From Coriobacteriia bacterium (lineage in GTDB: Bacteria > Actinomycetota > Coriobacteriia > Anaerosomatales > PHET01): a stretch of DNA of 64,000 bases. The notes below the pieces were generated by a model that worked only from the letters and a program-made list of their open reading frames with translations, was not told the DNA's origin and made no database searches. The translations under genes and the position numbers were made by a program. The stretch is taken from NCBI GenBank assembly GCA_035687245.1, contig DASRYH010000028.1, forward strand, positions 45,525 to 109,524, in the 5' to 3' direction. This document shows, one piece after another, positions 33,594 to 63,835 of the stretch (positions are counted from its first letter, which is position 1; each line of letters begins with the position of its first letter).

Positions 33594-33833
33594 CTACTCG
33601 GACTTCGACTCAGACTTCGTCGGCTCGCTGCTGGCGACCGCATCGTTGTCGGAGAGAGCCTCTGTCTTCGCGGCCTTCTCTTCATCGTTGGCGGAGTCGA
33701 AGCCCTCGCGCACGTCCTTGACTGCCTTGCCGAACATGCGGCTGAGCTTCGGGATCTGCTTGGGCCCGAAGAGCAGAAGGATGATCACCAGGATGATGCC
33801 CAGTTCCATGGGGCCAAGTCCGAACAGGTTCAT
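33594..33833 (-). CDS. tatA: Twin-arginine translocase subunit TatA/E
   Basis: MNLFGLGPMELGIILVIILLLFGPKQIPKLSRMFGKAVKDVREGF. ATG 33833 with GGAGG upstream is preferred to the TTG at 33860. Confidence 0.82.
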   Translation of the reverse strand: MNLFGLGPMELGIILVIILLLFGPKQIPKLSRMFGKAVKDVREGFDSANDEEKAAKTEALSDNDAVASSEPTKSESKSE

Positions 33834-33919
33834 CTCGTTCCTTACCTCCGTGTCGATCAATTCGTGTCGGCCGATGCCGGGCGGCCGTGGAAACGCCGAG
33901 GGCTAGCGTAGCACCCAAG

Positions 33920-34576
33920 TCATACGCCTGCCACGGTCTCTGTCCGTGACAGGTAGTACAGCGTGTTCATCAGTTCACGCACCGGATCCGTGTTGTGAAG
34001 CACCACGTCATCGGAGACGGTCACGTACGTTGACGAGTAGTTCAAGATCACTTGCATCCCCGCCTTGCAGAGCCGGTCCGCTACGGCTTGCGCCGCCTCG
34101 GGAGGAACGGCAATCACGCCGAACCGGATGCTCTGCTCGCGCGCCACTCGCTCTAGCTCCGCGATATCGCGAACGATTAGGTCGCCGAAGCGCTGACCGA
34201 TCTTGCGGGGGTCGCTGTCAAAAAGGGCCGCAACCACGAAGCCTCGAGAACGCAGCCCGTCATACCTTGCGATAGCGGTGCCAAGGTTGCCTGCGCCCAC
34301 GATTGCGAGCCGGTGTGAGTGGTCTGAGCCAAGGATTCGCTGGAGCCTGTCGACCAACATGCTGATGTCGTAGCCCACTCCCCGCTTGCCGAACTGGCCG
34401 AAGTACGCGAGGTCACGACGAATCTGCGCGGCGTTGACTTCAGCGAGTTCGGAGAGCCGCGCCGAAGATGCGGTCTGGTCGCCTTCTCCGCGCAGGTGAA
34501 GTAGCGCATTGAGGTATGCGGGAAGCCGCTCGATGACGCCTTGCGGGATGCGGGAGTCTGTAGCTGGCAAGTGCAA
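33920..34576 (-). CDS. rex: Redox-sensing transcriptional repressor Rex
   Basis: 218-aa ORF with IPQGVIERLPAYLNALLHL (wHTH) and a Rossmann fold LAIVGAGNLGTAIA. Confidence 0.9.
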   Translation of the reverse strand: MHLPATDSRIPQGVIERLPAYLNALLHLRGEGDQTASSARLSELAEVNAAQIRRDLAYFGQFGKRGVGYDISMLVDRLQRILGSDHSHRLAIVGAGNLGTAIARYDGLRSRGFVVAALFDSDPRKIGQRFGDLIVRDIAELERVAREQSIRFGVIAVPPEAAQAVADRLCKAGMQVILNYSSTYVTVSDDVVLHNTDPVRELMNTLYYLSRTETVAGV

Positions 34577-40591: not shown

Positions 40592-42787
40592 CTAGTTCAG
40601 CAGGCCCTTCTTGGCGAGGTTGACGTGGCAGTTCGCGCAGAAGGTCGGCTTGTGGCAGCCGAAGCAGCCATCGGTGCCGTTCTTCTTGACGACGTTCGGG
40701 TGGTAGCGGACCCACGGCTTGTCGGCCGGGGCGCCCTCGTGGTGGCACGAGTTACAGAACGCCGTCTTGTGGCAGTTCGAGCAAGTGGACTTGCTCAGCT
40801 TCTTGTCGGCAAAGCTCTTGGCGTGCGCCCCACCGTTGCCGGCGCCCTTGGCTCCGAAGCCATCGGGGTGCGGCATCTCGAGCTTGTGGCAGCTGCTGCA
40901 GAACTTGGCGTTCGGCAGTGCGGCAACTTCGCCCTTGTGGCAGTAGGTGCAGATCTCGCCATTGTCCTTGTAGAGCTGGACGTGCTTCGCGTCCTTGTTG
41001 CTGAAGTCCCTGATGAACTTGGACTGCTTGTGCGACGCCGGAACGACGTTGCGCTTGTTGTGGCACTTCACGCAGTCGTTCTTGGTGTGGCACTTCTCCA
41101 CACAGCCAGCAGCACCATTCTTGTTGACCGAGCCACCGTGGATGCTGATCCACGACTTGCTGGTCGACGAACCAATGTGGTGGCAGTTGCTGCAGACTTC
41201 CTTGAACTGGTGGCACTTCTTGCACTGGCTCGAGTTCTTCTTGCTGCTCACGTGGTTCGTCTTGAAGTCAGCCGGGTGCGGCATCTCAAGCTTGTGGCAG
41301 CTCTTGCAGAAGGCACCGTTGACGCCGCCAGCGTGGCAGACATCGCAGGCCTCGATCGACTTCTGAGCCTCGACGGCGTGCTTGCCGCTGACCTTCGCCG
41401 GCGTCTTGCCGTAGACGGTCATGGCGCCAGGAGCACCAGGCTTGATCCAGCCAGCCTGCTTGTGGGAGGCCGGGAAGACCTTCTTCGAGGTGTGGCAGTC
41501 GGAGCAGAACTTCGCTTCGTGGCACTCAGCAGTACAGGTCTTGATGCCCTTCTCGGCAACAGCCTTCGGGTGCTGCTTCGCGGTCCACGGCTCGGTCGCG
41601 ACGAACTTGTAGCCGCCGGCCTTGGTGCCGTGGTGGCAGTTGTCGCAGAAGTGCGACTCCTCGTTCTTGCCGTGACACATGATGCACTTCTTCGGGAACT
41701 GCTTCGACATTGCAGGGTGGCCCTGCGCCGGATCGGCAGTCGCAGTCGGCTCCTTGAAGGCGGCGGGGTGCGGCATCTCCATACCGTGGCAGCCGTCGCA
41801 GAACTGCTTCTCTACGTGGCATGTGCCGCAGTAGTAGATCGACTCGACCTTCGGCAGCTCGCCGCCGATAGAGTGCATCTCGTCGCCAGGGTTCTTCTTC
41901 TGCTCTTCGAGCAGCGCCTTGACCTCTTCGCGAGCAACGGGCTTCTCTTCTCCGCCACCGGAGGCATAGGCCTTCTCGGTACCCAGAAGGCTCTGCTCCT
42001 TCTCGGCTGCGCCTTCTTCACCCTCGGCGCTCGCCTCAAGAGCCTTGGCGGCCTCTTCCTTGGCCTCCTTCGCCATCTCGGCGTGGCCCTTGGGGTAGAA
42101 GTCCTTCTCGCGGTGATTCTCGGGCTTCAGTTCGAAGTTCGAGGGGTGGCACGCGCTACAGCGACCAGGAGCCGCTGCGCCGTCCTCAAGACCGTGGCAA
42201 CGGAAGCAAGCGGTCATCGAGGTGAAGACCAAGTGCTTCGTGTTGGGCTGCCCGGTCTTCGGATTCGTAAGCGTGAGCTTGAAGTCCTCGGTGTGGGCGA
42301 TACGGTTGTGGCAGACCGGACAGGCCGCGTTAACCTCCGCATGAACGGCGTGATCGATCTTCACGCCCTCAGTCGGGGTGACCTTGCGGGTCTCCATGCT
42401 GTGACACTGGGTGCACTTGTCGCCCGTCATCGTGAGCGCGACCTCGGACTCCCCGTTGAGCGGGAGGTCGTAGTCGTCACGAACGGTCAGGTACAGCTCA
42501 CCCAAGGCCTCAGCCTTGTGCAGGATGAAGATGACCGGGTTCGCGTTGACCGGCATGTGGCAAGCCATACAGCTTACTTTGGCGTGGGACGAGTGTTCAT
42601 AGGCAATGATCGTGTCGTCCTGAACCTTGTGGCAGGCCTCCGCGCAGAACCAACGAGTCGAAGTCACCCCCAATACGGGAACCATGACCCCGGCAATCAC
42701 CAGGACCGCTACTAGCGCCCAGATGATGTACCGTGGCCGCCGGACCGGATCCTTGAATCCGGCCAGGGAGATCTTCGCCATATTCAT
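40592..42787 (-). CDS. Membrane-anchored multihaem cytochrome c (22 CxxCH + 2 CxxxCH motifs); NapC/NirT-like N-terminal module
   Basis: 731-aa ORF with one N-terminal TM helix (YIIWALVAVLVIAGVMVPVLGV). Motifs counted by eye: CAEACH, CMACH, CTQCH, CPVCH, CFRCH, CSACH, an acidic/Lys linker, then 18 more in three modules. Confidence 0.85.
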   Translation of the reverse strand: MNMAKISLAGFKDPVRRPRYIIWALVAVLVIAGVMVPVLGVTSTRWFCAEACHKVQDDTIIAYEHSSHAKVSCMACHMPVNANPVIFILHKAEALGELYLTVRDDYDLPLNGESEVALTMTGDKCTQCHSMETRKVTPTEGVKIDHAVHAEVNAACPVCHNRIAHTEDFKLTLTNPKTGQPNTKHLVFTSMTACFRCHGLEDGAAAPGRCSACHPSNFELKPENHREKDFYPKGHAEMAKEAKEEAAKALEASAEGEEGAAEKEQSLLGTEKAYASGGGEEKPVAREEVKALLEEQKKNPGDEMHSIGGELPKVESIYYCGTCHVEKQFCDGCHGMEMPHPAAFKEPTATADPAQGHPAMSKQFPKKCIMCHGKNEESHFCDNCHHGTKAGGYKFVATEPWTAKQHPKAVAEKGIKTCTAECHEAKFCSDCHTSKKVFPASHKQAGWIKPGAPGAMTVYGKTPAKVSGKHAVEAQKSIEACDVCHAGGVNGAFCKSCHKLEMPHPADFKTNHVSSKKNSSQCKKCHQFKEVCSNCHHIGSSTSKSWISIHGGSVNKNGAAGCVEKCHTKNDCVKCHNKRNVVPASHKQSKFIRDFSNKDAKHVQLYKDNGEICTYCHKGEVAALPNAKFCSSCHKLEMPHPDGFGAKGAGNGGAHAKSFADKKLSKSTCSNCHKTAFCNSCHHEGAPADKPWVRYHPNVVKKNGTDGCFGCHKPTFCANCHVNLAKKGLLN
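40625..41836 (-). repeat. Three tandem intragenic hexahaem modules (about 110-130 aa each)
   Basis: Each module has the pattern CxxCH-x4-9-FCxxCH(K/G)(L/M)EMPHP ... CxxCH-x4-7-CxxCHH ... Cx2-3CH-x4-CxxCH. Modules 1 and 2 are each followed by V(F/V)PASHKQ. Approximate residues are 320-440, 481-588 and 613-721. Confidence 0.8.
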
Positions 42788-52492: not shown

Positions 52493-54763
52493 CTACTTCA
52501 CCTTCACGTAGTCGTACTTGGTCGACCACGTATCTGCATGCCTTGAATCGGCGACGGCACGCGCTCGAAGTCTCCAACTGCCCTTGCTCGTGAGGCGCAT
52601 CTTCACGGAGTACTTGCTCGTGGTCATGGTCGAACGAGTCAGCTTGGCATTCACGTAACCGTACGACTTCCACTTGCCGCTGACCTTCTTGTACTTGTAG
52701 ATGCGCACGTAGTAGCCACTTGCGGTGTGAAGCGGCTTGAGCGTGCCGTAGACCACGTAGTACTTCGACTTCTTCATGCTCGAAGGTGCCACTGGAGTCG
52801 AGACTGAGGTCTTCGGCACCACAACGATCACGTTGGATGTGCCCTTGTACGGGACGCCCGTCGACGCCAAGTAGTAGGTCTTGCCGTTCGGCAGAACTGA
52901 GAACGAGAAGGTGCCCGCGGTGGACGGGAACGTGGATGCCGAGATCGGCCTCCAGTTCACGCCGTCAGTGGAATCCTGCAGGTAGACCCTCTGAGTCGTT
53001 GGCAGGGGCGTCGAGCCGACGAATGCTGTGCCGGTGAGCGTCACATTCGAGGCGTATCCCGCCACCGACGGTCCGCTCAGGACGAGTGTCCCGGCGCCTT
53101 GGACGCTGAAGTTCACGGTCTTCGAGGACGCATGCCCGAGACTGTCGACTGCCGATACGACTAGCGAGCGCGACCCAGGATTGTTGATCGGCGTGCCCGA
53201 GACATAGGCTGCTCCATCGAGCTTGGCCGTGAGGGACGCAACGCCGTCGTCATCCGTGGCGGTGTAGATCGCGCCGGTTCCCAGTGGATGGGTGCCGCCG
53301 GCGGTGACTCCCGTAATCGTGATCGTCGGCCCAGGGTTGTCTATTGTGAAGTGCACCGTCTTGCTTGCTCGGTTGTGGGAAGCGTCCTCCGCAACGACGT
53401 TCAGGGTGTGGGGCCCAAGGGCGCTCACAAGTCGGCCGGTCGCCGGGTAGTCCACGCCGTCCAACTTCGCGTAGACGATCGATCCGTCGGACAAGCTGAT
53501 AGTCGGCGTCGCCTTCTGCAGGGTCTGCCCCTCCGTGACGCCCGAGACGGTGATCGTAGGCGGCACGTTGTCGATCGTGAACGTCACGGACTTGGTGTCC
53601 GAGTGTCCCGCCGCGTCCTGCGCGGTCACCTGCAGCGTGTGAACGCCGGCGTCCGTAACCACGGCGCCGTTTTGAATCGCCGTGCCATCGAGTGTCGCAA
53701 CCAGCGAGGTGACGCCCACGTTGTCAGTTGCAGTGAAGTTGATCTCGGCGTAGCTGTAGCTCTGGCCGTTGGTGGGCGACACAATCGTCACAACCGGGTT
53801 CTGGCTGTCGAGGTTCGTCTGATATGCGACCTCAGCGACAACCGGTTTCCCCCAGTCAGGGCCAGTGCCTGTGTCCCACGCCTGGACCGCGAACTCGTAG
53901 ATGTTGCCGGCGACCATGCCGGTGGTGTCGTTCCACGAGAGCGCGGCGGTCCGCGTTGAGGTCAGCTCGGTCCACACGCCGCCCTTGATGCGTTTGTAGA
54001 CGCGGTACGCGACCGCGCGCTCATCGTCGGCGGCGTTGAGCGGGCCCTTCTTCGGCTTGGTCCACGACAGCGCCACGTTCGTCCCGCTCGGAACGGCCTG
54101 AAGGTTGCCGACAGGTCCGTACTTGAAGCCAGAGACGACGAGGTCGTCGATCGAGGGTCCGATAGGGTCGCCAGCGCCGGTTCCCCCCGCTTCCGCCTGG
54201 TCGGTGAAGACGAACTGGAGCGTCAGCGGCTCGCGGGAGATGACGACACTGCCCGCCGTGTCGAAGGAAACGAGATCCCACTTCGAAGTCTGAGGGAGAG
54301 TCCAGTAGTGATCCTGTGGCGTGGGCGCGAAGAGGTGAATCTGCGTGCTTTCGGTGTCGGCGCCGCCGACTGCCTCGCAGGTATAGCGGAACGACACGTG
54401 CCCCGAGTACATATCCTGGAACCCAGTGACCGTTCTAGTCGCAGTGCCCTTGGTCCCATCCGGGTAGCGGTTGAGCCACGACGGATTGCCGGCGGCGTCG
54501 GTGCCTGCCGCCCACAGCGCGTAGTTGCCCGAGTACGACGACGTCGGCTCGATGGAAGGGCCCCAGTACGCGGTGAAAGGTGGATCGCCGCCCGGCTTGC
54601 CAGCAAGCGTGAGCTGCGTCGTGCCCGAGTCGAAGTTGTCGCGGAACAGCTCCTTCTCGCTCATCGCCGGTCCCTCTGCGAAGGCGGATCCAGCCACGAG
54701 CATGCTAGCCACGGCACACGCGACTGCTGCCGCCACGATCATCCTGCGATACGTGAATCCCAT
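52493..54763 (-). CDS. Secreted surface protein: N-terminal beta-sandwich, FN3-like domain, three Ig-like repeats, basic C-terminal domains
   Basis: 756-aa ORF with signal peptide ...LVAGSAFA-EG. FN3-like region NLQAVPSGTNVALSWTKP...YRVYKR...YEFAVQAW. Confidence 0.7.
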   Translation of the reverse strand: MGFTYRRMIVAAAVACAVASMLVAGSAFAEGPAMSEKELFRDNFDSGTTQLTLAGKPGGDPPFTAYWGPSIEPTSSYSGNYALWAAGTDAAGNPSWLNRYPDGTKGTATRTVTGFQDMYSGHVSFRYTCEAVGGADTESTQIHLFAPTPQDHYWTLPQTSKWDLVSFDTAGSVVISREPLTLQFVFTDQAEAGGTGAGDPIGPSIDDLVVSGFKYGPVGNLQAVPSGTNVALSWTKPKKGPLNAADDERAVAYRVYKRIKGGVWTELTSTRTAALSWNDTTGMVAGNIYEFAVQAWDTGTGPDWGKPVVAEVAYQTNLDSQNPVVTIVSPTNGQSYSYAEINFTATDNVGVTSLVATLDGTAIQNGAVVTDAGVHTLQVTAQDAAGHSDTKSVTFTIDNVPPTITVSGVTEGQTLQKATPTISLSDGSIVYAKLDGVDYPATGRLVSALGPHTLNVVAEDASHNRASKTVHFTIDNPGPTITITGVTAGGTHPLGTGAIYTATDDDGVASLTAKLDGAAYVSGTPINNPGSRSLVVSAVDSLGHASSKTVNFSVQGAGTLVLSGPSVAGYASNVTLTGTAFVGSTPLPTTQRVYLQDSTDGVNWRPISASTFPSTAGTFSFSVLPNGKTYYLASTGVPYKGTSNVIVVVPKTSVSTPVAPSSMKKSKYYVVYGTLKPLHTASGYYVRIYKYKKVSGKWKSYGYVNAKLTRSTMTTSKYSVKMRLTSKGSWRLRARAVADSRHADTWSTKYDYVKVK
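53102..53800 (-). repeat. Three tandem Ig-like repeats (about 78 aa each) inside the surface-protein gene
   Basis: Residues 322-398, 399-476 and 477-554 repeat the pattern P.(V/I)TI..(V/P)T.G......I..TA(T/S)D..GV.SL.A.LDG........G.H.L.V.A.D..GH...K.V.FTID. Confidence 0.7.
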
Positions 54764-54779: not shown

Positions 54780-55625
54780 CTATTTAGCGCTGTCGGCGAA
54801 TGCCTTCGCAGCGCTGGTTGCCAGACCGAGTTGCTGAGACGGGTCGCCCTCGACCGAGATCAGTACCTCGAACACGTAGATGCCTCGAACATAGGTTGAG
54901 GTAGCATACCGCGTGCCGTCGGTGCCCAAGTACGCAGACGCCTCGTCAACGGTCGTGGTCGAGCCGTTCTCTGCGTACAGTGCCTTGCTCGTCTTGCTGA
55001 TGAAGTCTTCGGCCGAGGCCTTGGACTTCATCTCATGAACAGTCCAGATGATCTGCTGCGCTGGCACCTTCGCCGAGACGGCGGTCGCAGAAACCTGCGC
55101 CTCGCCCTCGGTCTTCATGGCCGTGCCGAACGAGTAGCCCTCGAAGGTCGTCGGCAACAGAGTGAGCGCGTCGCCGACAGGCTCATCGAAGTCGCTCTCG
55201 TCCACAGTGGCAGTCCCACCGCTGCCTGGCGTAGTACTACCGCCGGAGCCGGGGTTCGTGGAGCCGCCTGAACCCTTCGAGCCCGTCGACCCTGGCTTCG
55301 AGCCACTGGTGCCCGAACCCGTCGCCTTCTTCTGCGCATCGGTCGCCTTCTTGGCGACGGCTAGGGCGCTGGCACTCGTCGGATCGAGCTCCTGCGCCTT
55401 CTTGGCGAGCTCGGCGGCCTTGGTGGCGTCACCTGAGGCCAGCGCGTCGTTCGCCTGCGCGACGTAGCGAGTAGCCTCGGACTTGGCCGTGTTGCTCGGC
55501 CCGCTCCTTGCACCCCCAAGCGCGCTGATGAGAAAGACGACAGCGGCCAAGACCAAGACAGTCACGACGCCCGACATGATCGCCATAGGGCGAGTGAAGA
55601 CGAACCTCTTCGGCTGGTCGCTCAC
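54780..55625 (-). CDS. Membrane-anchored protein with Gly/Ser/Thr-rich linker
   Basis: 281-aa ORF with a single N-terminal TM helix, a helical Ala/Lys segment, the linker GSGTSGSKPGSTGSKGSGGSTNPGSGGSTTPGSGG, and a C-terminal globular part. Confidence 0.5.
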   Translation of the reverse strand: MSDQPKRFVFTRPMAIMSGVVTVLVLAAVVFLISALGGARSGPSNTAKSEATRYVAQANDALASGDATKAAELAKKAQELDPTSASALAVAKKATDAQKKATGSGTSGSKPGSTGSKGSGGSTNPGSGGSTTPGSGGTATVDESDFDEPVGDALTLLPTTFEGYSFGTAMKTEGEAQVSATAVSAKVPAQQIIWTVHEMKSKASAEDFISKTSKALYAENGSTTTVDEASAYLGTDGTRYATSTYVRGIYVFEVLISVEGDPSQQLGLATSAAKAFADSAK

Positions 55626-55634
55626 GATGTTCTC

Positions 55635-56981
55635 CTAGCCGTTAAGCGCCGCGTCCACTGCGGCGTCATCTACCTCGGAGACGCCGCGGTCAGCAGCGTC
55701 GTCAATCGCGGCGTTGGCAAGCGCGATGAAGCGCGGGAGGTCGTCTTCGGCGGCGTCGGCGAGCCGAACCATCCCGGGCGACTCCATCGACATCGCAGTC
55801 GCTCCAGGAAGCGCGGCCGAGTCGAACCACCCGTCAACGATCTCAGGCTGGAGCTTGGTGGGGGCATCCTGAAGGAGCTGGATGTTTGCAAACGACCACT
55901 CGACCCGCGAGCCCTCGGGCACGCGCTCCTCCATCTCGGGCACCTCGCCCGGCGAGAACGCGTAGACCATCACGACCGGGCCCGCGAGCTTCTGACGCAG
56001 CCTCAGCATCGAGTCGGCCACATCGCGACGCAGGTCCTCGGGGACCTCCATCCAGCTGCGAAACTCGTCGTAGATGAACGCCGCCTTCGTAAAGCGTACG
56101 GAGGACAACTCGACCAGATTGGTAAGCGTCTTGCGCGGGGCCTTGGTGATCTTGAGCTCTTCCATGAGTGCGGCCATTCCGCGCTCTCGATAGAGGCGCA
56201 GCCCTCGCGCCAGAACGGGCGTCAAGTGCGCCCGGGTGTAGTCGATGAAGTAGTCGAGCAGCATTCGAGAGTCATCATCAGACATCTCGATCTGCGCGAG
56301 GATGGTGGAGGTGCCCGGCGCGTCGCCGAGCGTCGCGTCGACTTCCTCGGTTGTGTCGGTCTCGTCGCCATCCTCTTCGAGATTGGTGCGGCGCATGTCG
56401 GCAACCTCGATGAGCTCTTCGTGGCGCTCGAGCTCGGGCTCGCCGAAGACGCGCCGAACTGCGGTCAGTGCATCGGCACCGAACTCCTCGGCGAACGCGG
56501 CAAGAGCGTCGGGACCCAGCACCGCGTAGGAGGCAAGCGTGTCGTCGGGCGACGCGAGAACCTTCTTGACGTAGGGAACCAGAGTGAGCTCGAAGTCGCG
56601 GAACGCAAGGCGCTCAGCGAACACCCCGAGGGTTCCCCTCACGACACCGATCTTGAACATGAAGAGCTGAACATAGGCGTAGATGACGTTGAAGTCATCG
56701 TCGGTGGCGAGCACGCGCTCGGCGTGAGCCATGGCCGCCAGAGGGTAGCTCGGCGGAATGTCGGCGTCCTTGTCGACCCAGATGGGAAGCGGCGCGTCTT
56801 CGTCGCGCGCCTGGAGAATCGCCTTCAGCAGGCGATTCGAAGCCGCCCTAGTCTCGCACTCGACTCCGGGCTCGCCCGGGTTGTCGGCGCCGCCGGCAAA
56901 CGGGTTGGCGTGCAGCCCGAGGGATGCGTAGCGAGAGATGCCCTGTGGCGCTTCTTCTGCTTCGGTCGGGGTCGTCGGCAA
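55635..56981 (-). CDS. Hypothetical cytoplasmic protein (N-terminus resembles ExeA/AAA-like LGLxxNPF lead-in but has no Walker A)
   Basis: 448-aa ORF, TTG start after AGGTGA. Acidic, with no signal peptide and no GxxxxGK(T/S) motif. Confidence 0.5.
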   Translation of the reverse strand: MPTTPTEAEEAPQGISRYASLGLHANPFAGGADNPGEPGVECETRAASNRLLKAILQARDEDAPLPIWVDKDADIPPSYPLAAMAHAERVLATDDDFNVIYAYVQLFMFKIGVVRGTLGVFAERLAFRDFELTLVPYVKKVLASPDDTLASYAVLGPDALAAFAEEFGADALTAVRRVFGEPELERHEELIEVADMRRTNLEEDGDETDTTEEVDATLGDAPGTSTILAQIEMSDDDSRMLLDYFIDYTRAHLTPVLARGLRLYRERGMAALMEELKITKAPRKTLTNLVELSSVRFTKAAFIYDEFRSWMEVPEDLRRDVADSMLRLRQKLAGPVVMVYAFSPGEVPEMEERVPEGSRVEWSFANIQLLQDAPTKLQPEIVDGWFDSAALPGATAMSMESPGMVRLADAAEDDLPRFIALANAAIDDAADRGVSEVDDAAVDAALNG

Positions 56982-57051: not shown

Positions 57052-57093
57052 TTCGAAAAGCGGGGGCCCCGGGCTCGTTGCCCGGGACCCCCC
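57052..57093 (-). terminator. Intrinsic terminator closing the hydrogenase-cytochrome operon
   Basis: The minus strand reads GGGGGGTCCCGGGC-AACGA-GCCCGGGGCCCCC followed by GCTTTTCGAA, 44 nt after the cytochrome stop. Confidence 0.7.
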
Positions 57094-57136: not shown

Positions 57137-58447
57137 CTACTTGTCGTGGCAGCGCTCGCACACGCCGCGGTTGTCGGCACGGAGCAGAGCACTGGTGCCC
57201 TGGAGGCCGGCGGTTGCGGGATCGTCGTCCTTGTCAGGATCCACGCCAGCGATACCGTCACGCACGGGAACCCAAGTTCCTTCGGCGTTCTGGGTAAGGG
57301 AGGCAGCGGCCCAACCGTTCATGACGGCGGCAGAACCGTGAGCGTAGTGGCAGGTGAGGCAGCCAACCTGATTCTGGCGATTCGAGGCAGCGCCAGGAGT
57401 GACCTCCAGCGGCACGTGCTGGTCGAGGTTGCCATCAGCCTGAGCTGCAACCTGCAGGACGTCATCGCCCTGAACGAGCGTGATGTCGACCGGGTGACGG
57501 TGGCGAGGCTGCGAGCCGACAAGGCCAGCGCCCTCGTTCGTACCGTAGTCGTAGTTGCCGGTCTGGTTGTCGTACTGCTCGTGGCACGCAGCACACCAGG
57601 TCGACAGGGAGCCGACGCCGCCAACATAGGGGTTATCCATGCTGGAACGGATCTGCGAGCTACCCGAGGTGTAGTTCGGGACGTAGGCCTGCATCTGAGC
57701 CTGGCCGTCAGCGTGCTTCAGCCAACCGTTGTCCGAGTACGGGTAGTTGGTCTCAGTCGAGTAGACCATACCGTTCGGGGTGCCGTCGGGGTTGTAGCCA
57801 CCGACTGCGGTGTTGTTGACCGAGTCCTTCAGGAGGCGGTAGTTCGAGCTGCCGTGAGGATCGTGGCAGCTGGTGCAGGTCAGGTACAGCGAGTTGCCGG
57901 TCGTGGTGTTGCCAGCGCCCCACAGGATGCCCGTCTTCTCCATGGAGTGCGTGGAGGTGACGCCTGTGAGTGCCGGAGCCGCGTCGACTTCCCACTCGCC
58001 CAGCGTGCCCTTGTACATCGTCGAGAAACCGCCGCCGTTCAGCGGAGCGCCGAACGTGGAGCTCGTGACGTACGCGGTCGTGACGCCATCGTTGGTCGGG
58101 CCAACCTGGCCAGCGTAGCTGGAGGGGCCGCCATCGAAGATGCCCTCGACAACGTTCGTGGATGCGCCAGGAGCGTTGTCGCCGTGGCAAGCGTCACAGA
58201 ACTCCTGCATGGTGGCGGCGTCGCCGACCAGCAGGGCAGACGGGTTGTCTGCAGGGTCCCAGCCCGGAGGAGTGATCCTCGGGGTGAACGTCACGGACGA
58301 GAACGAGCTGTGAGCGCGGTGACAACCGGCGCAGGAGTCCGTGTCATCGATGTATCCGCCGTGCGGACCGAAGTTCGCGTACGCGGAGCCAACGACGGCG
58401 AGGGACAGCGCCAATACGAGCGTAAGTACTAGAACGAAACGCTTCAA
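57137..58447 (-). CDS. Secreted hexahaem cytochrome c, OmcS-like motif pattern
   Basis: TTG start at 58447 (RBS GGAGGTG, 17 nt after the large-subunit stop) gives signal peptide MKRFVLVLTLVLALSLAVVGSAYA-N. Six CxxCH motifs: CAGCHRAH, CDACH, CTSCHDPHG, WCAACH, CLTCHYAHGS, CERCHDK*. Confidence 0.85.
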   Translation of the reverse strand: MKRFVLVLTLVLALSLAVVGSAYANFGPHGGYIDDTDSCAGCHRAHSSFSSVTFTPRITPPGWDPADNPSALLVGDAATMQEFCDACHGDNAPGASTNVVEGIFDGGPSSYAGQVGPTNDGVTTAYVTSSTFGAPLNGGGFSTMYKGTLGEWEVDAAPALTGVTSTHSMEKTGILWGAGNTTTGNSLYLTCTSCHDPHGSSNYRLLKDSVNNTAVGGYNPDGTPNGMVYSTETNYPYSDNGWLKHADGQAQMQAYVPNYTSGSSQIRSSMDNPYVGGVGSLSTWCAACHEQYDNQTGNYDYGTNEGAGLVGSQPRHRHPVDITLVQGDDVLQVAAQADGNLDQHVPLEVTPGAASNRQNQVGCLTCHYAHGSAAVMNGWAAASLTQNAEGTWVPVRDGIAGVDPDKDDDPATAGLQGTSALLRADNRGVCERCHDK

Positions 58448-58464
58448 ATCTCTCACCTCCGTCG

Positions 58465-60537
58465 TTAGTGGATCGCGCAAGCGATGCAGGGGTCAAAGGA
58501 CTGGGCGATACGAGCGACCTCGACGCCACCGACGGTGGGGATGGACGCGCCACCCTGACCGGTGATGGTCTTGGTGTAAGTCGCACCCGTCGCGAACGGG
58601 GCACCGATGCATGCCTTCTCGATTGCACCATTCTGGCCAAGAACGTCCTTCGGCGAACCGTTCCACGTGGTGGGAACGATGCACTGATAGGCGGTGATCT
58701 TGCCGTTGTTGATGGTGATCTGGTGCATCAGGGAGCCACGCGGAGCCTGGCCTGCGCCCCAACCCTTCTTGATGCCGGTCGGGATCGACTTGTTGGCCCA
58801 GGTGGAACCAACGGTGTCGTTGGCGTTGACGCCAGCACCCGTGTAGGACTTGAGCTGGTTGATCCAGCTGCTGCTACCGAAGGACAGCGTGCCCAGAGGA
58901 GTCACGCTACCGTCGGACTTGCTGATCTTGCCAATCATGCGCTGGACGAGCACGAAGGACTGCAGGGCGCGAGCGCGCAGGCGGTCCATCGTGGACAGGC
59001 CGGCCTGGATGCCGAGGACCCAAGTCTGGATCGCGGCGACAAGACCCATGCCGTCGGCGCCGAACGGATACGCAACCGGGTCGACTCCGAAGAGGAACTT
59101 GCCCGAGTTCACGATGCCGTTGACGATCGTCGGAGCGATGATGTCGAGGTCGAGACCGCCAGCCTTGACGTAGAGGTCATAGCCCGAGACGGTAGCCGAC
59201 GTCGGGATGCTGGTGGCGAGATCGACGCCATCCTGGAAGTAGCCGTTGACGAACATGTCAGCCATGGGACCGACCTCGCAGGGCTTGCCAGCCCAGCGCG
59301 GGGCCTTCATGTAGCTGTAGCCGTCGTCACGAGCCGGCTTGGTGCGAGTGATGTCACCAGGATAGGTGGCCTCGGCACCAGCGAACGGACGAGATGCGGT
59401 CGTCGCATAGACGGCAGCGTCGTCGACGTACGGCACGTAGCGCGAGTTGGAGATGTCCTCAGTGAGGTTCGTCGGGACAGAGAGCGCGCCCGACAGGAAC
59501 TTGCTGATGACTTCGCCCTTATTCGCGACCGTGAAGTTGTACACGCCTGCAGGAGCACCAAGCTCGAGCACGCCGCCCTTGATGGCGAGATCGTCGTTGA
59601 GCTCAGGGAACTGACCCCAGACGAGGAAGCGGCCAAGACCAGCGCCGAAGCCGACGGGATCGCCGGGGGTGTAGAAGAAGCTGCGGGTCTTGTTGTGATC
59701 GTTGTCGAAGCCCGGATACAGGAAGCCGAGGACCAGAGCGATCGGCACGTACTCGTTGACGATGAACTTGCCGACTTCCTGGATGATCTCCTCGTACTTG
59801 TTGCAACGCTGAGTCAGGTTCTCCGTGCCATCGTTGGTGACGCCGCCACCGACGAAGCAGGAGGTCATCGGCATACGACCGGCGAACAGCGCGCCAGCCT
59901 CGAAGGTGAGGCGGCGAATGCGCAGTGCGCGAACGTAGCTGATGATGACCGCGTCCCAGATCTGCATGGTAGCCGTGTTGGCAACCGGCACAACGCCAGC
60001 GGTAGCGCTGACGGTGTCAGCCGAGAACGAGCTGCGCAGAACGGGGTTGTAGAAGGCTTCCGCGAAATACGGAGTCCAAGGCGGCATGTTCGGGCCCTGA
60101 ACGTAGCTCGGGGCAGCCAGGTGATAGAAGTGCGTGATGCTCGACATCAGGAACTCGGCCGAAAGGACGAGGTTACGGATGAGCAGAGCCTTCGGCGGAA
60201 TGCCGTAGGGGCTGCCAACCGCTTCGTTCAGAGTCGAGAACGTGATGTGAGAGCGGCTGTAGCCGAGAACAGAGTCGACCGCGTACGTCGAGGTCAGACC
60301 GTGCGGGACCGGGCAGACACCGCAGATGCGCTGCACGAAAGTGATCGCATCGTTGGCGCCACGGCCAAGCAGGAAGTTCTCGAAACCACGCCACAGGTTA
60401 CCGTGGGCGTTGGCGTCCTTGATGAAACCGTCAGAGCCAACTCGGACCTTGACTCCCAGGTGACCCTCGATACGAGAGACCGGGTCGACCTCGCGGTCCG
60501 TCGAGCCAGCGACGGTGTTGAGATTCCATACACTCAT
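58465..60537 (-). CDS. [NiFe]-hydrogenase large subunit
   Basis: 690-aa ORF with N-terminal motif RICGVCPVPH. The C-terminal DPCIACAIH is followed directly by the stop. Confidence 0.95.
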   Translation of the reverse strand: MSVWNLNTVAGSTDREVDPVSRIEGHLGVKVRVGSDGFIKDANAHGNLWRGFENFLLGRGANDAITFVQRICGVCPVPHGLTSTYAVDSVLGYSRSHITFSTLNEAVGSPYGIPPKALLIRNLVLSAEFLMSSITHFYHLAAPSYVQGPNMPPWTPYFAEAFYNPVLRSSFSADTVSATAGVVPVANTATMQIWDAVIISYVRALRIRRLTFEAGALFAGRMPMTSCFVGGGVTNDGTENLTQRCNKYEEIIQEVGKFIVNEYVPIALVLGFLYPGFDNDHNKTRSFFYTPGDPVGFGAGLGRFLVWGQFPELNDDLAIKGGVLELGAPAGVYNFTVANKGEVISKFLSGALSVPTNLTEDISNSRYVPYVDDAAVYATTASRPFAGAEATYPGDITRTKPARDDGYSYMKAPRWAGKPCEVGPMADMFVNGYFQDGVDLATSIPTSATVSGYDLYVKAGGLDLDIIAPTIVNGIVNSGKFLFGVDPVAYPFGADGMGLVAAIQTWVLGIQAGLSTMDRLRARALQSFVLVQRMIGKISKSDGSVTPLGTLSFGSSSWINQLKSYTGAGVNANDTVGSTWANKSIPTGIKKGWGAGQAPRGSLMHQITINNGKITAYQCIVPTTWNGSPKDVLGQNGAIEKACIGAPFATGATYTKTITGQGGASIPTVGGVEVARIAQSFDPCIACAIH

Positions 60538-60561
60538 GTGGTTTTGCCTCCTCTCTTCTTC

Positions 60562-61857
60562 TTAGCGCTTCACGAAGGGCACGAACGCGTCCGGATAGCC
60601 CTTCTCGGTGCATGCCATGCAGGGGTAGCCAGCGACGGTGCAGTGACCGCCGACGCCGTTCTTGTTCAGACCGGACAGCGTACCCGCGTTCTCCGGCTGC
60701 TGGTTGTTCCAACCATGCTTGCCGCAGAGAGAGCTAGCCGTGATGCCCTTGCAGCCGATCTTCTGCAGGCAGCCCGGATCGCCCGGCTTGAGGGCGTAGA
60801 TGCCCTTGGTGTAGCTCGGGTAGCGCGGACAGAAAGCTCCGTGAACCGTACCCGGGTAGACGCGCTTGACGCGACGACCGGCGTCGAGCTCGATGAGGTC
60901 GGTGCCGGCGAGCTTCAGCATGACCATGACGGTGGTGAGAACGAACCACCACGGGTTGGTCGGGCAGCCCGGGACATTGATGACCTTGGCAGCTGCGGCG
61001 TTGACGTCCGCAACAAAGGCGGCCTTCAGCGGATCAGCGTCAGCGTACTGCGACAGGAAGTCGTAAGCACCCTGGGCGCCGGTCTGCGACAGAGCGGGAT
61101 CGAAGCCCCCGAGGCCCTTCTTTGCGGTCGTGGCGCTGATCTGGGGCTTGCAGCCCGGATAGCCACCGTAGCAAGCGCACTGGCCGATCGGGAGGATCGC
61201 AGCGCACTCAGGCATGGCGGCGAGGTCGGCGACGACCTCCGGCATGTCCTGCTCGTGCGAACCGTCGTCGAAGACGCCGATGGAGCACCACGGCGTCGTG
61301 CCGGTGTTGCCCCACGCGCCACCCTGACGGGCATCCTGCATGGCACCCTCGATGACGAGCACGAACGGATCGTTGCTGCCGGTCGAGTAGGTGTCACGGA
61401 AGTCCTGGAGCCACTTGGCGGCGAGGTCGCCCGCCGGGCCCATGACGGTCTCGTGATACTGAAGGTCGATGACGTCGATGACGACGTCAGCGATGTTGAC
61501 CAGAGCACCGTCGGCACGAAGACCGCCGGTGAGGGTCGGGAAAGCGCCGCCAAGGGCGTTGGTTACGCCGGCAAGCCCGAGGGCGGTACCGGTGTCGATC
61601 CCAGCGACGGTAGCGTTGCTGTCATAGCGGAACGGCTTGCCACTGGCATCCTCGAGGATACCCAGCAGAGACGTGGAGCAGCCCGTGCACTCCGCGCCGT
61701 GAATCCATACGACCTTGGGCTTGCCGAAGGTTCCGCCGTAAGCGTTCGAATTGCCCGCAAACGCATCGGCGATCTTAGTTACCTCGACCTGGCTAAAGCC
61801 AACGGCGGTAGCCAGCGCTCCCAAGCGCGTTACGAACTGACGCCTGGTAATGGCCAT
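60562..61857 (-). CDS. [NiFe]-hydrogenase small subunit with twin-arginine signal
   Basis: 431-aa ORF with MAITRRQFVTRLGALATAVGFS..., WIHGAECTGCS (proximal cluster) and the C-terminal GYPCMACTEKGYPD. There is no C-terminal TM helix. Confidence 0.95.
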   Translation of the reverse strand: MAITRRQFVTRLGALATAVGFSQVEVTKIADAFAGNSNAYGGTFGKPKVVWIHGAECTGCSTSLLGILEDASGKPFRYDSNATVAGIDTGTALGLAGVTNALGGAFPTLTGGLRADGALVNIADVVIDVIDLQYHETVMGPAGDLAAKWLQDFRDTYSTGSNDPFVLVIEGAMQDARQGGAWGNTGTTPWCSIGVFDDGSHEQDMPEVVADLAAMPECAAILPIGQCACYGGYPGCKPQISATTAKKGLGGFDPALSQTGAQGAYDFLSQYADADPLKAAFVADVNAAAAKVINVPGCPTNPWWFVLTTVMVMLKLAGTDLIELDAGRRVKRVYPGTVHGAFCPRYPSYTKGIYALKPGDPGCLQKIGCKGITASSLCGKHGWNNQQPENAGTLSGLNKNGVGGHCTVAGYPCMACTEKGYPDAFVPFVKR

Positions 61858-62196
61858 ACTCTCTCCTCCTTCACGTGCATCGATGAACCTACTTACTAGC
61901 TGGACTTACAAAACTACACTCACGGAACTCCACGCACTTTCAGGCGAAAAAACGGAAAACGCCACCTCCTCTCGGCCCGCGTGAGCGGAGAACCGGAATG
62001 GAGGCGGCGCACAAATTCGAGAATGCTGGCAGGGACCCGGTACGCAGGAAGTGGTACGAAACAGGCTGCGAATTGCTTGAATGGGGGTCATCCGACCAAG
62101 CGGGTCTTCGTGCCGGCTCCAACCCGGAAGGTCTACTGTTTCGGTACCCCTCCTTCATTGGGTACTTCAAGCGCTGTAGAAGCGCACATGACAGTT

Positions 62197-62214
62197 TTGT
62201 AACAGGAGTTACAA
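62197..62214. promoter_or_regulatory. Candidate Rex operator in the hydrogenase leader
   Basis: TTGTAAC-AGGA-GTTACAA is a perfect 7-bp inverted repeat with a 4-nt spacer, 340 nt upstream of the small-subunit start. It shares half-sites with 34628..34645. Confidence 0.45.
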
Positions 62215-62261
62215 ATGGGACTGTAAGCCCTGTGAAGGTGCTCGTCAAGCACAATTGGCGT

Positions 62262-62298
62262 GGTTGGTGCCACCCGATCAACTCGGGTGGCACCAACC
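62262..62298 (-). terminator. 16-bp perfect hairpin after the NHL-repeat gene
   Basis: GGTTGGTGCCACCCGA-TCAAC-TCGGGTGGCACCAACC, 26 nt after the stop at 62324. It has no clear U-tract. Confidence 0.6.
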
Positions 62299-62323
62299 AG
62301 GTGCTGCCAACGTTGCACGGCAC

Positions 62324-63835
62324 TTACTCGCCGTCACCAGCCGTGCTGGATGACCGCTTGGTGAAGCGCTCGATGAACTCGATGCGGTTCACGGTGTCAA
62401 TCTCATTGAGCTTGGCCAGGCGCCTCATCTCAAGGTCCTCGGCGCACAGTACGCGCGCCCGCTGACCGAGCGAGAGAACGATTGCGACCGGCTTCGTGAT
62501 CTCGAGCTTGTCCATGAGGGCGCGGACGTCGGAGTCGGAGTACTCCGAGGCCTCGAGCAGCTCGGACAGCTTGATTCCAGCCTGCTCCACGTCCTTGAAC
62601 TTCTCGTAGTCTTCCTCGCTCACAATCCAACGGCGGCGGCGTGCCGGCATCAGATCGATCTCGCCCGCCTCGAGCATCGTTTCGATGAAGTCGCGGCTTG
62701 CCACAAAGCGCTGGCGGCGGAAGAAGAGCATCAGCGGGAAGAGCAGGAGCGGCGTGAAGCACCAGCCCCAGTTGCGAGGAACACGCGGCACGGGAACGAT
62801 CGAAACCTGCTCGGGCCAGCCCCAGACCTGCACGCGGCCGTTGGCTGAGTCGGTGATGAAGATGCGGTTGCGGGATCCGACGGAAACCGAGTTCGGGTAG
62901 TTGAACTGCCCGTCGAGCAGGCCCTGCTGGCCGAAGCTCACGATCTTCTCGCCCTTGTCGGCCCAGATCGTGGCGTCGTGAGCCAGAGTGTCGACGATGA
63001 CGAAGCGGCCCGGGGTCTTTGCCGTATCGGACGGGAACTTGTTCAGGAACGCGATACCGCGAGGAAGACCCTCTGTGACGATGATGGCGCGGGACTCACC
63101 CTTGAGGTCGAGCACCTGCACGCGACGGTTGTTGCTGTCGGCGACGTAGACGAACTTGCCGTGAACAGCGATGCCGTTCGGGAACTGGAAGACCCCTGGG
63201 GCCTTCTTCGCGTCCTGAACGATTCCGACGTTGCCCACAGAGCGCTTGAACTTGCCGTCGGGGCCGAAGATGAGTACGCGGTGACCCTTGAGTATCTCCG
63301 TGGCGTACAGGGTGCCGTCTGGGGCAAATGACAGAGCCACGGGCGCCCATTGGACTCCCTTGGTATCGAAGTCCGGGAGCTGGCTCTTCGGCAGCTTGGG
63401 GTTGAACTCCCTCAGATACTTGCCGGCACGCGTGAAGATGTGGACGGAACGAGTACGCCGGTCACTCACGTAGAGGTTGCCGTCTTTGGGGTTCTTGGCG
63501 ATGTAGAGCGGCACGACCGTCTGCGATGCGCCGAAGCTGCGCAGGAACTTGCCGTCTTGGTTGTAGACGCTGATGAGCGGGCGGGCGGAGTCGACGACGA
63601 AGACCTCGTTGCCGTCGGCGAGGACGCCTACTGGTCGCTGCATGCGCGTCTTGCCTTGCGTGTTGAATGAGAAGAGGAACTGAGGGGGCTGCACCACGGC
63701 GGAGTTCTCCACGGGCGCTGTATCGAACGTCAGCTTGTGGGTCGACCGGTAGTACAGGTAGTACCAGCCCAGCAGCAACAGCAGCAGGGCCAAGATGATG
63801 ATGATGAAGAGGCGTCTCTTCTGCGACCTGGTCAA
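62324..63835 (-). CDS. NHL-repeat beta-propeller protein flanked by two TM helices, with a cytoplasmic C-terminal domain
   Basis: 503-aa ORF, TTG start after GGAGGA. TM1 is LFIIIILALLLLLLGWYYLYY. Repeated units of the form P.G(I/V)A......(Y/F)V(A/V)DS.N.R(I/V)QV(F/Y). TM2 is WGWCFTPLLLFPLMLFF, followed by a tail of about 140 aa. Confidence 0.8.
   Translation of the reverse strand: MTRSQKRRLFIIIILALLLLLLGWYYLYYRSTHKLTFDTAPVENSAVVQPPQFLFSFNTQGKTRMQRPVGVLADGNEVFVVDSARPLISVYNQDGKFLRSFGASQTVVPLYIAKNPKDGNLYVSDRRTRSVHIFTRAGKYLREFNPKLPKSQLPDFDTKGVQWAPVALSFAPDGTLYATEILKGHRVLIFGPDGKFKRSVGNVGIVQDAKKAPGVFQFPNGIAVHGKFVYVADSNNRRVQVLDLKGESRAIIVTEGLPRGIAFLNKFPSDTAKTPGRFVIVDTLAHDATIWADKGEKIVSFGQQGLLDGQFNYPNSVSVGSRNRIFITDSANGRVQVWGWPEQVSIVPVPRVPRNWGWCFTPLLLFPLMLFFRRQRFVASRDFIETMLEAGEIDLMPARRRRWIVSEEDYEKFKDVEQAGIKLSELLEASEYSDSDVRALMDKLEITKPVAIVLSLGQRARVLCAEDLEMRRLAKLNEIDTVNRIEFIERFTKRSSSTAGDGE

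Follow-up and report, generated by a model that had tools for sequence, protein, structure and literature searches.

Introduction

Exported [NiFe]-hydrogenases are known with b-type membrane anchors, with Isp/Hmc-type partners or with small cytochromes c3. The Hys and Hyn enzymes of Desulfovibrionales are of the last kind: heterodimers exported by the twin-arginine translocation (Tat) pathway, without a membrane anchor, that feed a soluble multihaem cytochrome c. In the formate dehydrogenase (FDH) FdhABC3, the gene of the cytochrome subunit lies in the gene cluster of the enzyme itself (DVU2809-2812; PMC10920352), and Desulfovibrionales possess parallel hydrogenase and FDH versions of the arrangement. 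These features recur in the locus described here, a three-gene unit on the minus strand (positions 57137-61857) of a 64-kb stretch of DNA from the metagenome-assembled genome (MAG) of a Coriobacteriia bacterium. The stretch as a whole is referred to below as the window, and coordinates without a locus name are positions in it. The unit encodes the small and large subunits of an exported [NiFe]-hydrogenase and a hexahaem cytochrome c of the family of Geobacter sulfurreducens OmcS. We read it, with a probability of roughly 0.6, as a three-subunit extracytoplasmic hydrogenase with an OmcS-like cytochrome partner, providing an electron path in the cell envelope.

HydDB defines a putative Coriobacteria-type group 1i, a respiratory uptake enzyme split off from group 1a (PMC5037454), which comes from the same bacterial class as the enzyme described here. 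Khomyakova et al. reported group 1i in the isolates Anaerosoma and Parvivirga, together with a cytochrome b and a maturation protease (PMC9686372), neither of which lies near the window enzyme. Hernsdorf et al. noted that hydrogenases co-occur with large multihaem cytochromes in individual Horonobe Actinobacteria genomes, with operon linkage unmentioned (PMC5520028); two of the related loci compared below (L020 and L047) come from these genomes. Arbour et al. noted one OmcS homologue, with 28% identity, in a Coriobacteriales bioanode MAG (PMC7399161). No hydrogenase or FDH operon with an OmcS-family cytochrome was found in the literature, of which subscription journals were thinly covered, so that a prior description is possible. 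The unit suggests a previously undescribed link between hydrogen metabolism and electron transport outside the cell.

Results

A hydrogenase and a multihaem cytochrome in one gene unit

Three open reading frames (ORFs), all on the minus strand, make up the unit. Those of the small subunit (431 amino acids (aa), 60562..61857) and the large subunit (690 aa, 58465..60537) were assigned from the ORFs, Pfam matches and motifs, and that of the cytochrome (436 aa, 57137..58447) by family profile against the PDB, hhalign and a His/Cys map. The intergenic gaps are exactly 24 nucleotides (nt) between the two hydrogenase genes and 17 nt between the large subunit and the cytochrome, and each gene is preceded by a strong Shine-Dalgarno ribosome-binding site (AAGGAGGAG, GAGGAGG and GGAGGTGA, in gene order). 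The longest cytochrome ORF begins at 58480; the TTG at 58447 was chosen as the start, giving 436 aa, because the GGAGGTGA site lies seven bases before it. The resulting protein is a 100% match to NCBI protein HET6351428.1, and all three proteins of the unit are identical to NCBI entries (HET6351428/29 among them) of a Coriobacteriia bacterium MAG. A GC-rich terminator hairpin with a 13-bp stem (57052..57093, minus strand) ends the unit; a 97-nt stretch there folds with -53.5 kcal/mol (z = -4.7). The consensus terminator scan missed this hairpin because only four U residues follow the stem; taken as a whole, the consensus scan for promoters and terminators did no better than chance.

The original prediction, made from the DNA letters, had described three tightly packed genes, each with its own strong ribosome-binding site and closed by an intrinsic terminator, a small subunit with a Tat signal (TRRQFV) and no C-terminal membrane helix, and no hyaC-type b cytochrome, Isp partner or hyp/protease gene nearby. 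These observations are confirmed by the sequence, by folding, by a hydropathy scan and by Pfam. Of 52 genes called in the window, 37 between 15 and 64 kb were scanned with Pfam, with a few smaller ORFs of that range outside the scan; none of the 37 encodes a b-type cytochrome, an Isp, a Hyp or an endopeptidase. Likewise, no HyaC/HybB-type or NrfD-like quinone-reducing partner was found in or next to the operon among the scanned genes.

A group 1 hydrogenase without a C-terminal extension

The small subunit begins with MAITRRQFV, contains 15 Cys and ends 15 residues past its last CxxC; it matches Oxidored_q6 (PF01058) and NiFe_hyd_SSU_C (PF14720), both above the cut-offs. The large subunit matches NiFeSe_Hases (PF00374) with 236 bits against a cut-off of 25.8 and carries the motifs RIEGH, RICGVCPVPH and, immediately before the stop codon, DPCIACAIH, with C72/C75 and C684/C687 as ligands of the NiFe site. 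No transmembrane (TM)-like segment was detected in either subunit by hydropathy scan. The enzyme thus shows the RxEGH...RxCGxCxxxH and DPCxxCxxH motifs and the twin-arginine signal of group 1 [NiFe]-hydrogenases; the small-subunit ligands of the three Fe-S clusters that also characterise this group were assigned by eye only.

The closest solved relative of the large subunit is the periplasmic [NiFeSe] enzyme of Desulfomicrobium baculatum (4KL8/1CC1, E = 7.6e-59), to which the small subunit matches with E = 1.2e-25; the Desulfovibrio vulgaris [NiFeSe] enzyme is also among the closest, and standard periplasmic [NiFe] enzymes come next at ~1e-40. Membership of the [NiFeSe] (Hys) family was rejected: the active-site codon is TGC, not TGA, which makes this a Cys enzyme, and all NCBIfam scores are far under the family cut-offs (NF033181, 286 vs 600; NF045518, 263 vs 780). 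Through insertions, the large subunit is ~190 aa longer than that of Desulfomicrobium. It belongs to a clade of at least 120 sequence clusters with 45-62% identity, all metagenomic, whose members with a source name come from Coriobacteriia, Coriobacteriales or Actinobacteria MAGs.

Group 1 large subunits normally carry a C-terminal extension that is removed by a specific endopeptidase. No such cleavable extension is present here: the stop codon follows DPCxxCxxH directly in the window (58465-58494) and in 36 of 38 related loci (L002-L078). At one locus (L006) Gln replaces the final His, and the large subunits of a divergent variant (L053 and L057) are the only ones that continue past the His. 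A clade without the extension fits the absence of a protease gene, and its clade-wide loss bears on how [NiFe] sites mature. In the small subunit we noted by eye C406-x6-C413-x2-C416, with an extra Cys that presumably sits where [NiFeSe] enzymes have Cys and standard enzymes Pro. This Cys would indicate an all-[4Fe-4S] relay, a lead and not a test.

The cytochrome is related to OmcS

The cytochrome had been described as a secreted hexahaem protein. This part stands: six CxxCH motifs take up all 12 Cys, and a Sec-type signal peptide, with predicted cleavage between AYA and NF, is the sole TM-like segment in the hydropathy scan. The protein is, however, not a generic multihaem cytochrome. Pfam detects Paired_CXXCH_1, with other cytochrome families giving short motif-level matches, and more than 1000 homologues are present in metagenomes. 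A single-sequence phmmer search of the PDB gave no OmcS match. When the profile of a 28-sequence alignment was used, in which the haem motifs and the extra His are invariant, there was one significant PDB target, Geobacter OmcS (6EF8/6NEF; E = 9.2e-13, residues 9-406 of 407), and a 113-sequence profile also matched OmcS only (E = 1.8e-14). Aligned to the OmcS sequence with hhalign, the 28-sequence profile reached a probability of 99.1% (E = 1.7e-18), haems 1-4 being in register; for this comparison, residues 9-406 of OmcS were rebuilt from the profile alignment, and residues 1-8 and the last residue were filled in separately. Haems 5 and 6 are aligned in both profile matches to the PDB. All six haem sites are collinear with those of OmcS, with CxxCH at invariant positions.

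Putative haem ligands were compared by aligning OmcS in MAFFT with cytochromes of the hydrogenase type (28) and of the FDH type (7), the ligand roles being taken from the alignment and not from coordinates. Eleven of the 12 putative axial His of OmcS align to invariant His (OmcS H2 to window H29, H13 to H43, H16 to H46, H51 to H88, H110 to H167, H144 to H195, H147 to H198, H243 to H289, H332 to H367, H335 to H370 and H404 to H434), and the twelfth, OmcS H257 (NLRHPAG), matches RHRH318PVD through the common RHP motif only. The aligned pair H16/H46 includes what we take to be the intersubunit ligand of OmcS, the second His of CxxCHxxH, and His46 is invariant here. In OmcS, a His of the neighbouring subunit ligates one haem (PMC9473688).

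An AlphaFold model of the cytochrome built with 28 sequences was discarded (pLDDT 42.8), and one built with 113 sequences reached a pLDDT of 76.5 and a pTM of 0.74. In the latter, residues 27-48 are the only low-confidence stretch of three or more residues; they form the mature N-terminus, including haem site 1 and His46. A Foldseek search with this second model gave no match in the PDB. The NCBI name "cytochrome c3 family" (class III tetrahaem) was rejected because of the size (436 aa, against about 110-130 aa for a c3), the six haem sites in place of four and OmcS as the best solved relative; there is no PF02085 match. By sequence comparison, the cytochrome belongs to the OmcS family.

Conservation of the pairing

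A scan of one genome per species yielded 78 loci, which were then searched by tblastn with the window proteins. Where a title is informative, the locus is from a MAG of Coriobacteriia, Actinomycetota, Actinomycetes or Thermoleophilia; the others have generic "Eubacteriales" or metagenome labels. Neighbours were counted for cytochromes at least 40% identical, at loci with enough flanking sequence, and flanks were compared with the proteins of the window and of locus L069 only. The large subunit lies directly upstream of the cytochrome in 31 of 34 loci, typically with gaps of 17-30 nt, and the small subunit is present in 29 of 31. An NHL-repeat protein is encoded upstream in 27/30 hydrogenase-type loci and a 448-aa protein, DN448, downstream in 30/33. 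Protein identity across the orthologous operon loci is only 40-65%, and the gaps of 17-30 nt are found in nearly all of them. At two loci (L053 and L057) the hydrogenase is ~30% and the cytochrome 37% identical to the window proteins, and the gene order is the same. The three exceptions to adjacency are extra copies, two of which stand alone (L012 and L029). The third (L030:4155-11281) lies directly after the gene of a 1935-aa protein with ten CxxCH motifs, with no hydrogenase there.

Chance adjacency was rejected on this synteny count. Conservation of the order at 40-65% identity excludes chance and argues for a dedicated partnership, so that the cytochrome as dedicated partner of the hydrogenase is well supported by gene-order comparison, as is the original claim that the hydrogenase is wired to it.

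A sister module with formate dehydrogenase

Paralogous cytochromes, 33-39% identical to the window protein, lie in a second conserved gene frame at ~30 loci (L041-L079). This frame opens with genes for a TPR protein and an NHL propeller. The two FDH genes follow, encoding a Tat-signal molybdopterin subunit with an in-frame TGA and a four-cluster Fe-S subunit (FdhB) that has a TM helix at its C-terminus. Next comes the gene of the OmcS-like cytochrome, and after it those of a polytopic membrane protein, a lipoprotein-like protein, a further NHL protein and, last, a large surface protein bearing CWB2 cell-wall-binding repeats. The copy of Coriobacteriaceae sp. EMTCatB1 (L069:5632-11110) has its TGA at L069:6313 within ARI-U-HS, the place where formate dehydrogenases classically carry selenocysteine. 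In ~10 genomes the FDH module immediately precedes the hydrogenase module. Because the paralogue presumably serves a selenocysteine FDH in a matching gene frame, the cytochromes of both modules would feed a common envelope electron path.

Three Thermoleophilia loci carry TPR, NHL and OmcS-like cytochrome genes without a dehydrogenase between them (L058:7342-11092, L067:1728-5633 and L072:4720-9941, the last with two tandem cytochromes). Since these loci hold the trio without an enzyme, they suggest that TPR protein, NHL protein and OmcS-like cytochrome formed an ancestral core that received different dehydrogenases. The same loci, with the three orthologous cytochromes that lack a hydrogenase (L012, L029 and L030), could be taken to mean that the synteny is merely inherited and that the cytochrome serves some other pathway. 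We consider this very improbable, given the hydrogenase directly upstream in 31/34 loci, mostly at gaps of 17-30 nt and despite 40-65% identity, the second and far more divergent hydrogenase/cytochrome pair in the same order, and the parallel FDH-cytochrome operon.

On a methane-producing biocathode, the FDH genes of EMTCatB1 and the multihaem cytochrome gene next to them (1c0408-0406) ranked among the most abundant transcripts (PMC7943316). The pathway might run in reverse, with electrons from a cathode, Fe(0), reduced minerals or a partner cell passing through the cytochrome to the hydrogenase or FDH, which would release H2 or formate outside the cell. Periplasmic [NiFeSe]-type enzymes are generally regarded as good H2 producers. 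The biocathode relatives dominate electromethanogenic biocathodes alongside a hydrogenotrophic methanogen, and under closed circuit they show high expression of their FDH, of its cytochrome and of a NiFe hydrogenase (PMC7943316); by 16S, the closest relatives of the Coriobacteriales genome with the OmcS homologue come from iron-reducing sediments and from a biocathode (PMC7399161). However, an energy gain for the cell is hard to see, the EMTCatB1 hydrogenase is not established as being of this type, the OmcS-like copy of that genome being the one in the FDH module, and a cultured relative consumes H2 with Fe(III) (PMC9686372). Reverse operation therefore appears unlikely to us. A non-energy-conserving or reversed role would fit the ecology of biocathodes.

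Neighbouring envelope proteins and the window

The conserved unit reaches past its terminator: it takes in three further conserved genes downstream and the NHL propeller gene upstream, all of them on the minus strand. The NHL-repeat protein (62324..63835; Pfam NHL, E = 1e-19) is a six-bladed propeller with an N-terminal TM helix, a second hydrophobic stretch past the propeller and a C-terminal tail of ~130 aa. It is upstream in 29/29 paralogous loci as well, and in Desulfovibrio ferrophilus NHL propellers accompany extracellular cytochromes (PMC9769857). The TPR gene of the window module would lie past coordinate 64000. Downstream, DN448 (55635..56981) is an acidic protein with no signal peptide or TM segment, which has invariant residues and an N-terminal YxxLGLxxNPF motif; it gave no match in Pfam, NCBIfam or PDB profile searches and no similarity to X501, the polytopic membrane protein at the equivalent position of the FDH module. 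DN281 (54780..55625) is membrane-anchored and consists of a helical region, a Gly/Ser-rich linker and a C-terminal domain, an architecture that matches the lipoprotein-like X273 of the FDH module, the BLASTP comparison between the two being not significant. DN756 (52493..54763) is a secreted 756-aa protein with fn3 and Ig-like domains identified by Pfam and tblastn; in the sister module, the cell-wall-binding surface protein has a related Ig-like part. No redox motifs were found in DN448, DN281 or DN756, nor, apart from these similarities, any known homologues of the three.

The rest of the window holds housekeeping genes and cell-wall genes (YkuD L,D-transpeptidase, peptidoglycan-binding proteins, NlpC/P60), as well as TatA (33594-33860) and a Rex-like regulator (33920-34576), both on the minus strand. 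The Rex operator TGTGAAN4TTCACA, with at most three mismatches, matched 7 times against 11.9 expected, with no match in the hydrogenase leader. No outer-membrane genes were detected among the 37 Pfam-scanned genes. The host, predicted at first to be monoderm, is of monoderm type by its taxonomy (Coriobacteriia, Actinomycetota, Bacillati) and by this window context.

A multihaem cytochrome of 731 aa lies 15 kb from the unit (40592-42787, minus strand). From Pfam and a TM scan, it has an N-terminal TM helix, 21 CxxCH and 3 CX3-4CH motifs and an MtrC/MtrF-like domain. It is a candidate for the point at which the unit's electrons enter or leave the membrane. This protein bears on an alternative in which the unit's cytochrome acts as a c3-type hub, modelled on the Desulfovibrio Hys/Hyn - TpIc3 - Qrc/Tmc chains: it would shuttle electrons to a membrane complex encoded elsewhere, towards menaquinone or the cytoplasm, and extracellular acceptors would be optional. 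Energy conservation would need charge separation, the closest solved hydrogenases operate in this manner, and so tight an operon points to a stoichiometric subunit like that of FdhABC3; the membrane-anchored protein with 21 CxxCH could supply the connection, and Anaerosomatales genomes are reported to encode putative quinol-interacting multihaem proteins (PMC9686372). Against this, no Qrc-, Tmc-, NrfD- or cytochrome b-type gene was seen in the window or the loci analysed in detail, related flanks having had no systematic screen, and among the conserved neighbours, which are of envelope or scaffold type, redox motifs are absent. On balance we regard a hub of this kind as quite possible but somewhat unlikely.

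A conserved leader upstream of the operon

The spacer between the NHL gene and the small subunit is 466 nt long (61858-62323, minus strand). Directly past the NHL stop codon lies a perfect 17-nt inverted repeat (62261..62299, minus strand), probably the NHL terminator, and the hydrogenase unit would therefore have its own start. A promoter-like TTGACG-17-TACAGT (62220..62248, minus strand) is a weak lead, as one such site was found against 1.4 expected by chance. Further downstream, a leader hairpin (62094..62133, minus strand) with a covarying outer stem displays the invariant loop GAGCCGGCA, which occurs once in the window and once per locus in 23 hydrogenase-type loci, always 173-262 nt upstream of the small-subunit start and never before FDH modules. 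It is followed by a terminator-like stem, GCCRYCUCC...GGAGGUGGC with a U-rich tail (61946..62010, minus strand), for which folding gave -23 to -40 kcal/mol in 25/25 folded sequences. Covarying pairs of this stem include alignment columns 190/242 (CG 8, AU 6, GC 6). Rfam gave no match within 52-64 kb at E <= 1. The leader is a candidate attenuator, riboswitch-like element or small RNA specific to the hydrogenase operon, and as such a candidate new regulatory element for hydrogen metabolism.

Discussion

Reading the unit as a three-subunit extracytoplasmic hydrogenase, we propose that the exported, anchor-less [NiFe] heterodimer would oxidise or make H2, either direction being possible, and that the cytochrome would dock at the distal cluster of the small subunit as its direct electron acceptor or donor. 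The cytochrome would take, in a Gram-positive wall space, the role that tetrahaem c3 has with Hyn, Hys and FdhABC3 in Desulfovibrio. Electrons would then pass to other multihaem proteins, either outward to Fe(III), electrodes or partner cells, or to an energy-conserving membrane complex, and the conserved leader RNA with its terminator may gate expression.

Several considerations weigh against this proposal. On chemiosmotic grounds, H2 oxidation and acceptor reduction that both occur outside the membrane separate no charge; no charge crossing the membrane means no proton-motive force, so that an outside-only route alone conserves no energy and a membrane complex encoded elsewhere is likely needed. 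Such a complex could be Qrc-like, the Qrc of Desulfovibrio being electrogenic, or could involve the 21-haem protein. Genes for a quinone-reducing partner, for Hyp proteins and for cytochrome c maturation may be located outside the 64-kb window. Moreover, cultured Anaerosomatales are reported to carry group 1i hydrogenase with cytochrome b and protease (PMC9686372), so that the class does possess a conventional route. In favour of the proposal, isolates of related Anaerosomatales use H2 and Fe(III) for growth (PMC9686372). A quinone-free extracellular route is possible; the statements of the original prediction that the module "bypasses quinones" and carries out "hydrogen-driven extracellular electron transfer" are not supported as worded and remain inference. 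The present finding is more specific than that prediction, in the OmcS-type partner and the modular architecture, and less settled on bioenergetics.

A bolder extension is that the OmcS-type subunit polymerises, with hydrogenase or FDH at the cell-proximal end of a wall-crossing nanowire that the TPR and NHL proteins assemble or anchor. We hold this to be doubtful, if slightly less so than reverse operation; a filament is conceivable because the intersubunit His is conserved and stand-alone cytochrome copies exist. If true, it would allow self-contained electron exchange between H2 or formate and minerals, electrodes or partner cells, and could explain the output of H2 and formate by Coriobacteriia on biocathodes.

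Pairing with an OmcS-family protein would add a class of partner to those known for exported hydrogenases and would join hydrogenase bioenergetics and cytochrome nanowires within a single transcription unit. The unit offers a molecular candidate for subsurface Actinomycetota coupling H2 and formate to iron minerals, for Coriobacteriia that, living on biocathodes or on corroding steel, exchange electrons and provide methanogens with H2 or formate, and for the passage of electrons across a thick cell wall.

Comparison with known systems

Relative to the Desulfovibrionales systems, the host here is Gram-positive without an outer membrane, and the partner is a 436-aa OmcS-family hexahaem protein instead of a c3 of ~13-16 kDa. 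The large subunit also differs from that of the [NiFeSe] enzymes of this order by its additional ~190 aa, its lack of a C-terminal extension and the use of Cys in place of selenocysteine.

The Hup-OmeAB-RdhAB complex of Dehalococcoides is alike in that an exported [NiFe] hydrogenase faces outwards from a cell lacking an outer membrane and has a quinone-free extracytoplasmic partner. It is unlike the window unit in its iron-sulfur protein HupX, its molybdoenzyme-like scaffold and its organohalide reductase acceptor, and it has no cytochromes. In the extracellular electron transfer of Thermincola potens and Carboxydothermus ferrireducens, a monoderm envelope is crossed by secreted multihaem cytochromes without obvious anchors, and OcwA lies at the surface. 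These chains begin with quinol-oxidising cytochromes and are not known to include an operon-encoded hydrogenase or an OmcS-family member.

To our knowledge, omcS of Geobacter shares no operon with a dehydrogenase gene, and OmcS, in a diderm cell, receives its electrons by way of cytochromes of the periplasm and the outer membrane. OmcS forms conductive filaments. The likeness of the window cytochrome to OmcS is visible by family profile only. Within that likeness, the two proteins are of similar size, have six collinear CxxCH motifs including a CxxCHxxH, begin after processing with an N-terminus that contains a His (FHSGG in OmcS, NFGPHGG in the window) and share CHDPHG, RHP and a C-terminal CxxCHxK.

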